From positions 1 through 64,000 of the IMG/VR virus record IMGVR_UViG_3300048014_000057: a DNA stretch of 64,000 nucleotides; one strand, given 5' to 3'. Position numbers and translations under genes: made by a program. Below are positions 3,171 through 52,178 of the stretch, piece after piece (positions within the stretch are counted from its first letter, which is position 1; each line of letters starts with the position of its first letter). The notes under the pieces are model-generated. The model did not search any database. It was not told where the DNA came from and was given only the letters and a program-made list of their open reading frames with translations. The DNA comes from a virus.

Positions 3171-3234
3171 TATAATTTAATCTCCATAAAAAAAATATTA
3201 AAAAAGGGAGATTTTACTCTCCCTTTTATTTGCA

Positions 3235-3579
3235 TTAAAGTTGTGTGCGAGGACCAGCTTTTATAAAACCCATATTAAGATATTTTCCGACTTCAGAAGG
3301 ATCAACACGAATTTTTTCCTTTGTTTCTTTATTGCCCATCCAAACCTTACCCACAAGGGAAGCTCCACGCCCCCCAACCCTAATTTCCTTACTTTGTTCC
3401 CCATCTTCTTCTAAAACGGCTTCTGGGGCCTTCCCTCTGGGTCTATTAAGCCATTCTTGAAGTTGGGCTCTGGCATCTTCCTCAGTTGAACCTATAAAAT
3501 GATAGGGAAGAACAGAACTATTGGCTTGATAGGTAAGACAAACCTGATTTTTAATGGTAATTCTCTCTTCCATTTTCAT
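3235..3579 (-). CDS. Hypothetical early protein with C-terminal homing-endonuclease-type DNA-binding repeat
   Basis: AAGGAG RBS before MKMEER; C-terminal VWMGN...KIRV..SEV.KYL..GFIKA motif. Confidence 0.6.
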   Translation of the reverse strand: MKMEERITIKNQVCLTYQANSSVLPYHFIGSTEEDARAQLQEWLNRPRGKAPEAVLEEDGEQSKEIRVGGRGASLVGKVWMGNKETKEKIRVDPSEVGKYLNMGFIKAGPRTQL

Positions 3580-7789: not shown

Positions 7790-8334
7790 ATTTAGATATT
7801 CTAAAAGAAAATTATATTATACCAAAAAAATATGAAAGAATTATAAAAACATTTACAGAAAATTCTTTTCCTATTAATAATTATCTATGGAAAAAATATA
7901 ATAAAGAAATAGAAGTTTCTTTTGAATTTGAAGCCATAGTAAATAATATAGATCAAATTCTTTTTTCATATTCGATGCCTAAAGATATGAAAGTTTATCA
8001 TAAATCTATCTATGATCCAAGAAAATTATATAAAATAGATAATAATATATTTTTTCCTTGTTACATTTCAACTTCTATTTCTAAAAATTATGTTGAATTT
8101 TATTATAAGAATAGGAATGTCTATAAAATAGATAATATTTATCATAATAATATTTTTATAATAAATATAAGAAAAGGAAATCCTGGAATTTTTATACCTG
8201 ATGAATATAATATTGATAATAAAGTAAAAGAATTTATTATACCGCATTCATCTTATTTAAAATACATTCAAACAAATTCCCAAGAAACACATAAAAACAA
8301 TTTTACACATTTTCATGAAATGGAATTACAATGA
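7786..8334 (+). CDS. ADP-ribosyltransferase (VIP2/Alt-like), divergent
   Basis: INNYLW helix, KVYH, YISTS and KEFIIP motifs; aligns by eye with 9426..10055. Confidence 0.7.
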   Translation: MNLDILKENYIIPKKYERIIKTFTENSFPINNYLWKKYNKEIEVSFEFEAIVNNIDQILFSYSMPKDMKVYHKSIYDPRKLYKIDNNIFFPCYISTSISKNYVEFYYKNRNVYKIDNIYHNNIFIINIRKGNPGIFIPDEYNIDNKVKEFIIPHSSYLKYIQTNSQETHKNNFTHFHEMELQ

Positions 8335-10055: not shown

Positions 10056-13000
10056 CGAATACATTATTTAGTTATAGAGGTAAAGAAGGTCTAAAGAAAA
10101 GTGGTGCCAAATTAAATTGGACCAAAGAACTTATTGCGGAATATGTAAAATGTCGTGATGATGTTGTATATTTTGCAGAACATTATTTTAAAATTGTGGT
10201 AGAAAAAGGTTTTGAATTAATAAAATTACGTGATTATCAAATAGAAATGCTTAAATCCATGCAGGAAAATAGATTTAGTTTGTTTTGTTGTGCAAGACAA
10301 TCAGGTAAAACCGAGGTATTTCGTATTTTTATTACACATTATATTCTTTTTAATGAATATAAAACTGTTGCTATTTTGGCTAACAAAGCGGAAACTGCCA
10401 GAGAAATTCTTTCTAAATTACAATTATCCTATCAAAATCTTCCTATTTGGCTTCAATTGGCAGTCAAAGACTTTAATAAAGGTACATTTACATTAGAAAA
10501 TAATTCTAGAATTATAGCAACTTCTACTTCGAAAAACTCTGCGCGAGGATTTACGGCACATTGTGTTATACTTGACGAAGCAGCTTTCATTGAAAATTTT
10601 GATGAATTTTATTCGGCAGTTTATCCTGTAATTTCTGCTGGCGTAGAAACAAAAATTATCATGGTTTCTTGTGTTGCAGATGATACTTATATTTTTACCG
10701 ATAAAGGTATAAAACAGGTAAGAGATTTTATTGATAAATCTAAACCAGAAAATCCGAATATTGGTTATGAAATTGAAAATTATTCGGTAGAAGGAAAATC
10801 AGGAATTAATCATGGAAATATTATGGTTAATTCTGGAAAAGCACCAACAAAAATCATAATAAGTAAATCATCCGAAATTGAATGTTCTTATAATCATAAA
10901 TTATGGGCTTGTAAAAATGGAATATTTGATTGGTTTAAATCTGAAGAATTAGAAGAAGGAGACTATATTTCTGTAAAATATGGAATGAATTTATGGGGAA
11001 ATAATGATTTAATAGAATTTAAAAATAAAAATAAAAAAATATGGAGAGATATAAATTATTTTCAATATCCAGAAAAAATTGATAAAAATCTATCTTATTT
11101 TCTAGGTTTATATTTAGCAAAAGGATATACAGATTCTAAAAGAGGTAGAACTATTATAACTTGTGGTGATGATATTTCAGAATCAATTACTAATATCGGA
11201 TTAACTTTTACAAAACATGATAAAGTTCATTATAATATTTCTTCTAAATATTTTACTGAATTTTTAGAAACATTAGGATTTGATACTTCCAAAAAGGCCA
11301 AGGAAAAAACTTTACCTTCTAAAATAATGGAATTATCCGAATATAATATTTGTAATTTTCTATCTGGATATTTTGATGGAGATGGATGTATTACCCAAAA
11401 AGGAAGAATTACCTTAACATCTACTTCAGTAAAAATGATAAAACAAATAAGAATGTTACTTTTAAATTTAGGTATAAGAACACAATTATATAATCGTTTT
11501 ACGGTTCCTTCTAAAAAAGTTAGAGTTTCTTCTCACGTCTGGATATTAGAAATATGTTCGTATGAAGATATTAAATTATTCTCGGAAAAAATAGGATTTA
11601 GATTAAAAAGAAAATCAGATAGATTTATATTCAATAAACCTCCTTCCAAAAATATTACCAAGGATATTATTCCTTGGGGAAGAGAATATTTTAAAAATAA
11701 AGGTTTTGAAATAAAAGAAACATCTGATCTAAAAAGAATTCCTCATATTTCTAGAAAAAAATGTTTAGAAATAGAAAATCTAAGACAATTTGATTCTATA
11801 TTAGATGAAAAAATCTGTTGGGAAAAAATAAAAAAAATAGAAAATTCAGAAAATTATGTCTATGATTTTTCTTTAAATGATATAGAAAATGATTCTTGGT
11901 GCCATTCTGTTCTTTACAACGGAATTGTAGGACATCAGACACCAAATTCCTTAAACCATTTTTACGATTTTTGGCAAGGAGCACAGGCGGGAACTAATGG
12001 GTTTAATCCTATATTTGTTCCTTGGTATAGAGTTCCTGGTAGAGATGAAAAATGGAAAAAACAAACACTTGAAGGTATTAATAATGATCTAGAAAAATTT
12101 GCAGTTGAATTCGAATGTTCTTTCATTGGTTCATCTTCTACTTTAATATCTGGTCATAAATTAAAACAATTAATAACTATGTATAAACAACCATTAGTAA
12201 AAGATGATAATTTAAAATTAAATATGTATGAAAGACCTATTGGTGAATTGGTAAGAATGAATGATAATGTAAAAGAAGTTTTACCACCACATAAATATTT
12301 TCTTATTGCAGATGTATCCAGAGGAAAAGGATCAGATTATTCTGCATTTTCTGTTATTGATTGTACAGAACTTCCTTATAAACAAGTTTGTACATTTAGA
12401 GACAATGAGATATCTCCTGCTGATTATGCAGAAATAATTTATAAAACAGCTACTATTTATAATGCAGCCAATGTATTAGTAGAAATTAATGATATTGGAG
12501 AACAAATTGGTTATATGTTAATGATGGAATTTGGTTATGAAAATGTTCTTTGTACAGAAACATCTTCAACAAAAGGTAAAAGAATAACTTTTGGAGGCAA
12601 AAAAGCAGACAAAGGAATTAGAACTACTAAATTTGTTAAAGCTCTTGGGTGTTCTTTTCTTAAACTTCTCATAGAACAAGATAAAATTTTAATATATGAT
12701 CAAGAAACAGTCAATGAATTAACAACATTTTCCAAGAAAAAATTATCCTATGAAGCTGAACATGGAAAACATGATGATTTAGTCATGGGTTTGGTTTTAT
12801 TTGCATGGCTTACGGATCAAAATTATTTTAAAGAATTTACTGAAATTAATACTATTATGTCTTTTCGAGAAAATAACGAAGAAGACATTAATAATAAATT
12901 AACACCATTTGGATTTATTCATGGAATTTTAGGACCACCAAAAAAATATAAAGAATATTATGAAATTCATAATATGAATATTCCATTCAGAGAATTTGTG

Positions 13001-13633: not shown

Positions 13634-13641
13634 TATTTATC
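13634..13641 (-). promoter_or_regulatory. T4-type late promoter (G/A)ATAAATA
   Basis: Same motif precedes tmRNA (43851-43858), tRNA-Asn (51793-51800), gp18 (14932-14939) and gp23 (32535-32542); resembles the T4 gp55 TATAAATA box. Confidence 0.7.
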
Positions 13642-43186: not shown

Positions 43187-43246
43187 TGGACCAAGGGAAG
43201 GATTCGAACCTCCGACATAAAGCTCTACCAACTGAGCTACCTTGGT
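43187..43246 (-). ncRNA. tRNA-like RNA lacking the anticodon arm (60 nt)
   Basis: ACCAAGG-TA-GCTC-AGTTGGTA-GAGC-TTTATGTC-GGAGG-TTCGAAT-CCTTC-CCTTGGT-CCA. Confidence 0.8.
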
Positions 43247-43846: not shown

Positions 43847-43898
43847 CCTTTATTTATCTCATAAAATCTTTTACAAGTCAAGAAAAAAATAAAAAAAA

Positions 43899-50642: not shown

Positions 50643-51146
50643 TTATTCTCCTAAGTTTTTGATTGAATTAATAGTTAAGATTGTATGAAATCCTTCCGAA
50701 TGAGTAGGAAATTCAAAAGATTTCTTCATACTTTCTACAACAGAAGAAGGAATTGTTTTTCCAGAACGAGAATTAAGTCTTTTATTATATATTTCTTCAT
50801 CTGGGCATTCAATAACAATAGCTATTTTTTTATAATTTTTTGGAATTAGATCAAGAATTTTTTTTCTGGATTTTACGGTTAAATTTGTCCTATCAACAAG
50901 AATATTTTTATTTTCTAAAACTGACTTTTTAATTATATCAAAAAATATATTTGTTGCTTCTTTAATATTACTTTCAAAAATTTCATTATAAGTTTTACCT
51001 TCTAAAACAGCAATTCTTTCTAAAATTCCATCAGAAGAACAAATAACACCATTATTATGAAAATAATTTTGACTTATCCAAGTAGATTTTCCAGAGGCGG
51101 GAAAACCTACCATCATATAAAAATATGGTCCTAAAATTAAAGACAT
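50643..51146 (-). CDS. AAA_33/polynucleotide-kinase-like P-loop kinase
   Basis: G.PASGKSTW, SSD, D.TNL...SR, R...R.GK.IP, P...EGF. Confidence 0.85.
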   Translation of the reverse strand: MSLILGPYFYMMVGFPASGKSTWISQNYFHNNGVICSSDGILERIAVLEGKTYNEIFESNIKEATNIFFDIIKKSVLENKNILVDRTNLTVKSRKKILDLIPKNYKKIAIVIECPDEEIYNKRLNSRSGKTIPSSVVESMKKSFEFPTHSEGFHTILTINSIKNLGE

Positions 51147-51544
51147 CGAAATCCTTCTTTATTTTCTTCTGTATAATAACAATTTTTAAATTCAAATGTA
51201 GAAATTGCCCTATAACAACCTAAGCATGGACGACATAAACCAGAAATATAAGAGCCACGAGGTTTAGTTTTTTTTACTCTACAAACAAAAATAGAACATT
51301 TCTTAAAATCTTCAATATCGATCTTTTTATAAATATTTTTAATAGCACAAACTTCTGCATGTAAAAAAATAGAATTAGAATTTCTAGAATATTTCTTTTG
51401 AAAAGGATGGGTTTTCAAAAAATTCTGTCCAAATGAAATAATATCGTTTTTGTAGGTAATGCAAGAAACTATTTTTGCATTACCTACACTTTCAATATCT
51501 GAAGCCATATTGAACAATAAATTAAAAATCTTAGATTGATCCAT
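51137..51544 (-). CDS. Zinc-dependent cytidine/dCMP-type deaminase
   Basis: HAE and PC..C motifs. Confidence 0.85.
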   Translation of the reverse strand: MDQSKIFNLLFNMASDIESVGNAKIVSCITYKNDIISFGQNFLKTHPFQKKYSRNSNSIFLHAEVCAIKNIYKKIDIEDFKKCSIFVCRVKKTKPRGSYISGLCRPCLGCYRAISTFEFKNCYYTEENKEGFRCL

Positions 51545-51613
51545 AATAATTAGTCCATTTCAGTTGCTACTTAAGAGCATAGATCAATTTTTTAGAAATG
51601 TCAAGAAAATATT

Positions 51614-51783
51614 TGGCTCCTAGTGTGGGTAACGATCCCACCTAAACATTGCTTAATTTTACAATACATTATTTTAGTATTGTTTAATCTTCCAATACAT
51701 TATTTCAGTATGGACCACTAACTTATAATATATTATAAGTCGTTAATCAGGCAAGTCCTTGCACCATGCTTGGATTCCTAGGA
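51614..51783 (-). tRNA. tRNA-Asn with a 91-nt anticodon-loop insertion (~51657-51747)
   Basis: 5' TCCTAGG...GGACTTGCCTG | insertion | TTAAGCAATG...GTGGG-ATCGTTA-CCCAC-ACTAGGA-G-CCA; joined loop TTGC-CTGTTAA-GCAA; G discriminator. Confidence 0.75.
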
Positions 51784-51857
51784 AAACTCTATTATTTATC
51801 TAATGTAGATAACCAAAAAGTATTAAAATTAAAATAATTATTATAACTAAAGTTATA

Positions 51858-52178
51858 TTATTCATTTAAATCTTCTCCCAAAGCTGTAAGATAAAGATCA
51901 AGTAATTCTTGTTCTTCTTCTCTTTCTTCCCGATCTTTTTTACGAAGTTTTAAAATAATTTTGACAATTTTTGCATCAAAACCAACACCTTTAACTTCTG
52001 TAAATACTTCTTTAATTTGTTCTGAAATATCTTTCTTTTGTTCTTCTAAGTTTTCAATTCTTTTGATAAAATCTAGAAGTGCCTCACTATTAAGTGTTGA
52101 TGCAGATTTAATTGTCTCTTCCTCCTTAATATCTTCCCTAAGAGCATTTTCTAAATCTGAGGATGTTGTATATGACAT
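51858..52178 (-). CDS. gapR: GapR (DUF2312) nucleoid-associated protein
   Basis: L..FIKRIE.LEEQKK.I...IKEVF.E.KG.GFD.K....I.KLRK....ER.EE..LL.LY..ALG. Confidence 0.9.

Follow-up and report, generated by a model that had tools for sequence, protein, structure and literature searches.

The window analysed here, positions 1 to 64,000 of the IMG/VR virus record IMGVR_UViG_3300048014_000057, carries on its minus strand a tRNA-Asn gene whose anticodon loop is interrupted by a 91-nt insert. The complete record is a single virus contig of 144,859 bp (27% GC; CheckV completeness estimate, 84%). Judging from the genes around the tRNA, which encode a gp43-type B-family DNA polymerase, a UvsX-like recombinase, a T4-type RNase H, a glycosyltransferase, a GapR-like protein, a small deaminase and a P-loop kinase, the source phage is a T4-like myovirus, only remotely related to cultured phages (best UvsX identity, ~45-46%); the DNA of the tRNA-Asn locus found no match among 50,697 phage records. 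An original prediction, made from the sequence alone, had placed two intact tRNA halves here, running from 51783 to 51614 on the minus strand and separated by 91 nt in the anticodon loop. Its coordinates and strand are correct, and both the halves and the splitting of the loop are borne out by alignment to uninterrupted homologues, tRNA finders not being the basis of the assignment. The gene is organised as follows.

51614-51783, minus strand: interrupted tRNA-Asn(GUU) gene, 170 nt including the encoded CCA, defined by alignment to 16 uninterrupted homologues and by cloverleaf covariation.
51748-51783, minus strand: 5′ exon, 36 nt, comprising the acceptor 5′ strand, A8A9, the D arm, the anticodon stem 5′ strand and C32 U33 G34; 35 of its 36 positions are those of the syntenic locus L011, described below.
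51657-51747, minus strand: insert or candidate intron, 91 nt, between G34 and U35.
51614-51656, minus strand: 3′ exon, 43 nt, comprising U35 U36 A37 A38, the anticodon stem 3′ strand, a 7-nt variable region, the T arm (AUCGUUA loop), the acceptor 3′ strand, G73 and CCA.

Homologues were retrieved from IMG/VR with an exact T-arm 20-mer and a 23-mer pattern from the D arm and anticodon stem, and were supplemented by one contig of a metagenome-assembled genome (MAG) and by L254, which came from a scan of IMG/VR with the 3′ half of the gene. This gave 17 distinct homologues of ~79 nt, every one uninterrupted, 16 of which were aligned with the window copy (alignment A1). All have the anticodon loop CUGUUAA, U1-A72 and G73, and most encode CCA; further family traits are A8-A9, an invariant D loop AGCAUGGUGCA, a 4-bp anticodon stem and a 7-nt variable region. 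The acceptor, D, anticodon and T helices all show compensatory changes around a 7-nt anticodon loop: 94.4% of cells are paired and 11 of the 20 pairs have changed on both sides, a result equalled by none of 500 shuffles, while slid controls reached 32-43%. The identity elements for AsnRS are the anticodon GUU, the discriminator G73 and U1-A72, and all are present in the window copy, GUU being restored once 51657-51747 is removed. By these sequence criteria the family is a phage-specific tRNA-Asn(GUU), found only in phage tRNA clusters. Cultured Acinetobacter T4-like phages carry the same gene, which some GenBank records label tRNA-Asn and many leave unannotated.

Neither ARAGORN, with or without its intron option, nor the Rfam tRNA model RF00005 gave a match at 51614-51783, so that the intron-aware search by which the original prediction was to be checked made no call on this gene. 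Lowering the thresholds of the intron option produced only poor and mutually inconsistent Ile, Val and Lys models, which we dropped as evidence. The joined exons are likewise missed by both programs, as are the uninterrupted homologues. The failure is thus a property of the whole Asn family, with its 4-bp anticodon stem, A8 and 7-nt variable region, and it means that a widespread family of phage tRNA-Asn escapes both ARAGORN and the Rfam tRNA model. Within A1, the T loop has two alternative forms, GAUCGUUAC with A54/U58 and GUUCGAUUC with U54/A58; its bases change together, and the 54-58 pair is swapped between the two. Phe, Cys and Met tRNAs on further phage contigs (L002, L005, L007) have the AUCGUUA T loop as well. 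In L016 (positions 3200-3368), a canonical tRNA-Asn(GUU) comes immediately after a non-canonical Asn gene, so the family may be more than a duplicate of ordinary tRNA-Asn.

In A1 the two window pieces abut exactly, with 91 extra bases between CCTG and TTAAGC, and excision of 51657-51747 restores the invariant loop CUGUUAA. Because this loop is invariant in the family, the register cannot slide and G34|U35 is, on the aligned sequences, the only position for the junction. Excision had been predicted to give either GUU or, one base upstream, AUU; the former matches the family loop, whereas the latter departs from the consensus. The insert is much poorer in GC than the exons (21% against 49%). Its internal structure, foreseen as a palindrome plus two near-duplicate stems, is confirmed by BLAST and by Tandem Repeats Finder (TRF), the near-duplicate hairpins lying at 51692-51713 and 51662-51682.

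51721-51740, minus strand: hairpin 1, a perfect 20-nt palindrome (BLAST against its own reverse complement, 100% over 20 nt).
51648-51711, minus strand: 31-nt tandem duplication forming hairpins 2 and 3 (TRF, 2.1 copies, 87% match, with manual alignment).

The 31-nt repeat extends 9 nt into exon 2, the upstream copy reading TTAAACAAT and the true junction TTAAGCAAT. The duplication therefore took place within this gene and spanned the 3′ junction of an insert that until then had measured 60 nt. The ATTAA that had been noticed at both junctions is indeed there, together with a third copy in the middle of the insert, and two of the three copies are accounted for by the tandem duplication. The insert folds better than its shuffles (z = -3.1). 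In the minimum-energy fold predicted for the 170-nt precursor, the acceptor, D, T and anticodon stems are all kept, and the ends of the insert pair with U33-A37, forming on top of the anticodon stem a 5-bp helix that holds both junctions, offset by one base pair.

Locus L011 provides the empty site. It is syntenic with the window over at least 6 kb, where its features follow each other in the order UvsX (57% identical), GapR-like gene, tRNA-Asn, TTGACA promoter, deaminase (49%), kinase (49%), glycosyltransferase and RNase H. Its tRNA-Asn is uninterrupted, lies at the same place and is identical to the joined window exons at 75 of 79 positions. The 91 nt are therefore a lineage-specific gain. 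Comparison with orthologous tRNA-Asn genes in relatives, which had been suggested as a check, thus returned uninterrupted copies throughout. Scanning IMG/VR with the 3′ half yielded one further uninterrupted copy, one non-homologue and no interrupted copy. A metagenome scan for the 5′ half followed by a non-T base, a pattern that covers inserts starting with A, C or G, yielded 112 stretches; those that we inspected all proved to be accidental matches within GC-rich coding sequence.

The state of the exons bears on whether the gene is still in use. None of the 46 family-invariant columns has changed in the window copy, every helix is paired, and one exon difference between window and L011 is a compensated acceptor pair. 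The duplicated 31-nt units have, since their in-place duplication, diverged at 4 sites, and at this rate ~2.9 changes would be expected under neutrality in the 46 invariant columns, where 0 are observed (P ~0.06). This suggests, without deciding the matter, that the exons stayed under selection after the insert had arrived; with only four events behind it, the argument is no more than suggestive. The phage uses Asn more than any other amino acid, at 9.0% of codons (AAT, 8.45%; AAC, 0.6%), and no further gene for tRNA-Asn could be detected in the 145-kb record, estimated at 84% completeness.

The insert belongs to none of the classes of removable element that we considered. No Rfam family, including group I introns and small ribozymes, matched the region at E values up to 10 beyond chance level, and the covariance models for hammerhead, twister, pistol, hatchet and HDV-like ribozymes found nothing in 51550-51850 at the same limit. 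The earlier statement that the insert is not a group I intron holds: RF00028 gives no match, the insert has only 91 nt, and it ends in A after a 5′ exon ending in G, where group I splicing needs a U before the intron and a terminal G. Nor does the insert show group II features. By inspection, a hammerhead at the 5′ junction fails on its CUGAUUA, which lacks the G of the CUGAUGA box. A bulge-helix-bulge motif, with two 3-nt bulges on either side of a 4-bp helix, cannot be drawn either: the UGCC and GUAA before the would-be bulges do not pair, and in the predicted fold both junctions lie inside one 5-bp helix. Excision by RNase III was rejected on the ground that the cuts would leave 1-nt 5′ overhangs instead of 2-nt 3′ overhangs. 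Excision of the RNase P/Z type was set aside for an insert without a T-loop or acceptor-like stem, and suits the tRNA-like inserts of L209 and L006 described below. RNase E-like sites (R|AUUA) occur 3 times against ~1 expected by chance, but two of them come from the duplication and cutting there would leave an 8-nt loop.

Other phage tRNAs of canonical build carry inserts of 50-86 nt that are not group I introns, at or beside the same 34/35 position. The cases found, with a group I intron at this site for comparison, are the following.

L006:7555-7680 (identical to L008:3299-3424), minus strand: tRNA-Lys(UUU) with a 50-nt insert after U34 containing the T-arm-like hairpin GGAGUUCAAACCUCC; Rfam tRNA score of 56.9 bits across the insert.
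L008:20-181, minus strand: tRNA-Thr with a canonical body and an 86-nt insert at 33/34 (GGU) or 34/35 (AGU).
L209:2120-2257: tRNA-Lys(UUU) with a 62-nt insert after U34 resembling a miniature tRNA, with a 7-bp terminal stem and a T arm with UUCGAUU loop, then A-CAA.
L212:10396-10583: tRNA-Lys with a group I intron at 34/35 (RF00028, 52 bits).

The L008 contig combines an interrupted tRNA-Thr and an interrupted tRNA-Lys with an uninterrupted homologue of the Asn gene. The ligase content of insert-bearing phages is mixed: RtcB is encoded in two of them, and the complete 151.6-kb phage genome L209 yielded neither Rnl1 nor RtcB. As separate observations, L154 has a long insert similar to that of L212, and 130-140-nt 'long tRNAs' are found at L147:7647-7785, 7954-8087 and 10135-10266, at L148:1338-1473 and 1734-1868, and at L184:9682-9952. 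These long tRNAs share the conserved insert motif CCTTTCGC...TTTTCCC...GGTGACGT, and two score above the threshold of the Rfam tRNA model; RtcB is encoded in the L147 and L184 genomes.

A search of the record for RNA-repair genes, which had also been advised, found two RNA ligases besides the kinase next to the tRNA.

C1:74785-75933: Rnl1-family ligase (PF09511, 4e-34; TIGR02308, 138 bits, below the equivalog cut-off).
C1:89060-90118: DraRnl-type ligase (TIGR02306, 169 bits).

The known role of T4 Rnl1 is the resealing of breaks in anticodon loops. The 167-aa kinase matches the kinase part of bacterial Pnkp (TIGR04075, 4e-12) and, at ~1e-4, the structures of CthPnkp kinase, PSTK and T4 Pnk in the Protein Data Bank (PDB); by this similarity it is a possible 5′-end healing enzyme. 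EndA (PF01974) and RtcB, which were among the enzymes to be looked for, are absent from the genes of the record, as is a phosphatase of the PNK3P type.

Based on what is directly observed, namely the insert, its exact position, the empty orthologous site, the intact exons and the ligase and kinase genes, we propose that this tRNA-Asn gene is still under selection and that its insert is taken out of the RNA by cutting and ligation, a reading to which we assign a probability of about 45%. The reading draws further support from the predicted precursor fold, from the short inserts at or beside 34/35 in other phage tRNAs, from the published introns of Lak megaphage tRNAs and from the GATAAATA box upstream of the gene, the latter two described below. 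An AT-rich insert of 60 nt would have been gained exactly between anticodon bases 34 and 35 in the lineage of the window phage, and would then have been enlarged to 91 nt by the 31-nt tandem duplication over the 3′ junction. Transcription would yield a precursor of 170 nt with the four stems folded in the usual way and the anticodon arm lengthened by the insert. Endonucleolytic cuts at both junctions could be made by a nuclease of the host or by one of the phage, and the halves would be rejoined by a phage RNA ligase, the Rnl1-type enzyme being the candidate, with the Pnk-like kinase helping if needed; any benefit to the phage is likewise putative. A more specific version, which we consider unlikely as it stands, is a ribozyme-free splicing of phage tRNA: the ends of the insert and anticodon bases 33-37 would form the 5-bp helix, a nuclease would cut on either side of it, and the Rnl1-type ligase would rejoin the halves. 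Such splicing could also keep a reserve of tRNA-Asn precursor immune to nucleases that cut at 34/35. Protein-catalysed splicing and a shield against anticodon nucleases had both been suggested as possibilities in the original prediction.

Several observations weigh against removal at the RNA level. We know of no nuclease for these junctions; the phage encodes neither EndA nor RtcB nor a PNK3P-type phosphatase, and the insert offers neither a bulge-helix-bulge nor a ribozyme family. L209, a complete phage genome with a comparable short insert, does without Rnl1 and RtcB. The window copy alone is interrupted among 17 distinct uninterrupted homologues and the Acinetobacter phage copies (IMG/VR and metagenome scan), and its insert has no relative anywhere searched, which places its structure beyond covariation testing. 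The kinase and the deaminase also adjoin the intron-less orthologue in L011. Lastly, the constraint test counts 4 substitutions and assumes equal mutation rates in an AT-rich repeat and in the exons, and duplications by slippage are typical of unconstrained DNA.

The best-surviving alternative, possible though short of probable in our judgement, is a tolerated inactivation in which AT-rich DNA entering the anticodon killed the tRNA-Asn gene, the host tRNA-Asn suffices, and what we see is a young, undecayed pseudogene. The DNA might have entered by illegitimate recombination, by repair after a nuclease cut or by a slippage-type event. Phage tRNA genes are often dispensable, and the tRNA lists of the loci that we fetched differ widely from phage to phage. 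A single interrupted copy with an insert lacking homologues, for which no known splicing mechanism fits, is what this explanation would lead one to find, and the tandem duplication marks the region as prone to slippage. On the other hand, the exons have not decayed although the duplicated units differ at four sites, with the P value given above; the loss of a tRNA for 9% of the codons should be costly; and the insert occupies the same 34/35 site as short inserts in other phage tRNAs that are otherwise perfect.

The unspliced 170-nt RNA might instead be the product itself, a stable, tRNA-shaped RNA with an enlarged anticodon arm that has ceased to decode and could serve as a decoy or sponge for anticodon nucleases or tRNA-binding enzymes, similar to T4 rnaC and further tRNA look-alikes of phages. 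The predicted precursor fold, which retains all four stems, would permit this; rnaC, at 139 nt, likewise combines a T arm and a terminal stem with large internal expansions, and constraint on the exons is expected for a mimic too. We nevertheless find such a role improbable: the insert-bearing form is not conserved, all relatives having the plain tRNA, the split halves of the loop match the decoding consensus exactly, and the phage would be left without a tRNA-Asn of its own in spite of its very high use of AAT.

A miniature mobile element, another suggestion of the original prediction, would be a miniature inverted-repeat transposable element (MITE) or a hairpin of the IS200/IS605 type that targeted TTAA in the anticodon loop, and TTAA/ATTAA at both ends and hairpins near both ends of the insert do recall such elements. 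It is very improbable, given that the insert has no second copy in the 145-kb record (chance matches of 10-14 nt only), that the hairpin unit has zero matches in IMG/VR, that terminal inverted repeats are absent, that the duplication of TTAA is unclean, with an extra A after CCTG, and that two of the three ATTAA copies are products of the in-place duplication. A deletion remnant of a group I intron formerly at 34/35, for which the intron of the L212 tRNA-Lys offers a precedent, is scarcely credible for an insert of 21% GC hairpins without a P3-P8-like core, without RF00028 signal even at E = 10, after a 5′ exon ending in G and not U, and with the terminal G absent.

The surroundings of the gene add the following features.

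51793-51800, minus strand: GATAAATA box, 10 nt upstream of the tRNA 5′ end, a putative late-promoter-like element.
51576-51604, minus strand: sigma-70-like promoter (TTGACA, 17 nt, TATGCT; 10 of 12 matches) between the tRNA and the deaminase gene, with TTGACA likewise in L011.
51137-51544, minus strand: zinc deaminase of the cytidine/dCMP type (PF00383, 1.8e-8; PHROG dCMP deaminase), whose homologues are named deoxycytidylate deaminase.
50643-51146, minus strand: stand-alone polynucleotide-kinase-like P-loop kinase, 167 aa (AAA_33, 8e-19), syntenic in L011.
51858-52178, minus strand: gene for a GapR-like DNA-binding protein (PF10073, 9e-26) upstream of the tRNA, with a GapR-like open reading frame at the same place in L011.

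Boxes of the GATAAATA type stand just upstream of three non-coding RNA genes, all on the minus strand: the tRNA-Asn gene, the transfer-messenger RNA (tmRNA) gene (43851-43858) and an orphan RNA region (13634-13641); in the window, the motif KATAAATA is under-represented, with 27 occurrences found and 40 expected. A functional link of the kinase and the deaminase to the insert, in end healing and in editing of A34, had been put forward as speculation. It receives no support from their position, which is uninformative because the same pair follows the uninterrupted tRNA-Asn in L011, and the deaminase looks to be of the dCMP/cytidine type, with no TadA signal, so that editing of tRNA by it is unsupported as well. 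Closer relatives of the locus were sought through the neighbouring proteins: GapR led to one locus at 40%, the best match of the deaminase (50% identical) lies on a contig without a syntenic tRNA gene, and a kinase profile recovered L011 again and one 32% relative without the tRNA. The record also has a two-piece alpha-type tmRNA gene, and ARAGORN sees only 5 tRNA genes in it, including a tRNA-Tyr with anticodon AUA and one with a UAU anticodon; these two (C1:71924-72016 and C1:87399-87490, the latter 92 nt long) lie outside the window. The source phage has several unusual tRNAs suited to codons ending in A or U. At 43189-43246, on the minus strand and adjoining tRNA-Gly, a 58-nt Rfam tRNA match (46.6 bits) missed by ARAGORN may be a truncated or armless tRNA.

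To our knowledge, bacteria and their viruses do not splice tRNAs outside self-splicing group I introns. The present case is unusually clean, with a known empty site, a register fixed by the family consensus and an in-place duplication that serves as a rough internal clock, and it comes from a T4-type phage that carries the enzymes by which broken anticodon loops are rejoined, namely ligases of the Rnl1 and DraRnl types and a Pnk-like kinase. If the insert is spliced, phage-infected bacteria would be shown to process RNA by a new route, in which the RNA-repair kit finds a further use; if, in particular, proteins make the cuts, the bacterial world would have a protein-catalysed form of tRNA splicing, assembled from the kit for anticodon-loop repair. 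If it is not spliced, the gene would show a phage tRNA gene shortly after its inactivation, a rare case with a date to it. The question of splicing is directly testable with a synthetic 170-nt gene.

Among known systems, group I introns occupy the anticodon loops of bacterial and phage tRNAs, for example tRNA-Leu(UAA) at 34/35, and thus share the site of the window insert. Known group I cores have ~200 nt or more, whereas the window insert has only 91 nt and lacks an RF00028 match, the U at the exon end and the terminal G. The introns processed by EndA/Sen and RtcB/Trl1 in archaea and eukaryotes are comparable in being short, in having no conserved sequence and in prolonging the anticodon arm while the mature domain folds, and a nuclease and a ligase would be needed in both cases. 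They differ in that the window insert lies at 34/35 and not at 37/38, has no bulge-helix-bulge and comes from a phage encoding neither EndA nor RtcB; we know of no EndA/Sen-type pathway in bacteria or viruses. In the repair of the anticodon loop by T4, the host PrrC makes the cut, T4 Pnkp heals the ends and Rnl1 seals them. The window phage has an Rnl1-family ligase and a Pnk-like kinase, and the joining of anticodon-loop halves is the reaction that would be needed. T4 repair, however, reseals a single nick, while two cuts are needed to excise 91 nt; no phosphatase domain was found in the window phage, and a link of its enzymes to the tRNA-Asn gene is no more than inferred. T4 species 1 RNA (rnaC) and its look-alikes resemble the 170-nt RNA in their stable-RNA size, their T arm and terminal stem, their internal expansion and their place among phage tRNA genes, but they are conserved in the expanded form, whereas in the window the expansion is a single departure from a gene of the ordinary decoding type.

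A close parallel is found in the Lak megaphages, the one reported case of short, unclassifiable inserts in phage tRNAs, which was left unexplained: their tRNAs carry 'enigmatic' introns, for which alleles with and without the insert are described (Devoto et al. 2019, Nat Microbiol, PMC6784885), and our literature search found no later paper that explains them. In both cases, short inserts occur in otherwise intact phage tRNAs, are absent in some relatives, fit no Rfam class and have no known mechanism of removal (PMC6784885). The window phage is T4-like and of ~145 kb, as opposed to a megaphage of 540 kb, and even the body of its tRNA departs from the canonical form; the Lak introns are the same from cohort to cohort, and one of them resembles a tRNA (PMC6784885), whereas the window insert is a unique AT-rich sequence of three hairpins in one genome. 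Because it is an insert in the anticodon loop of an intact tRNA, with intron-less alleles and no RNA family, the window insert joins the short, unexplained phage tRNA introns of the Lak type.
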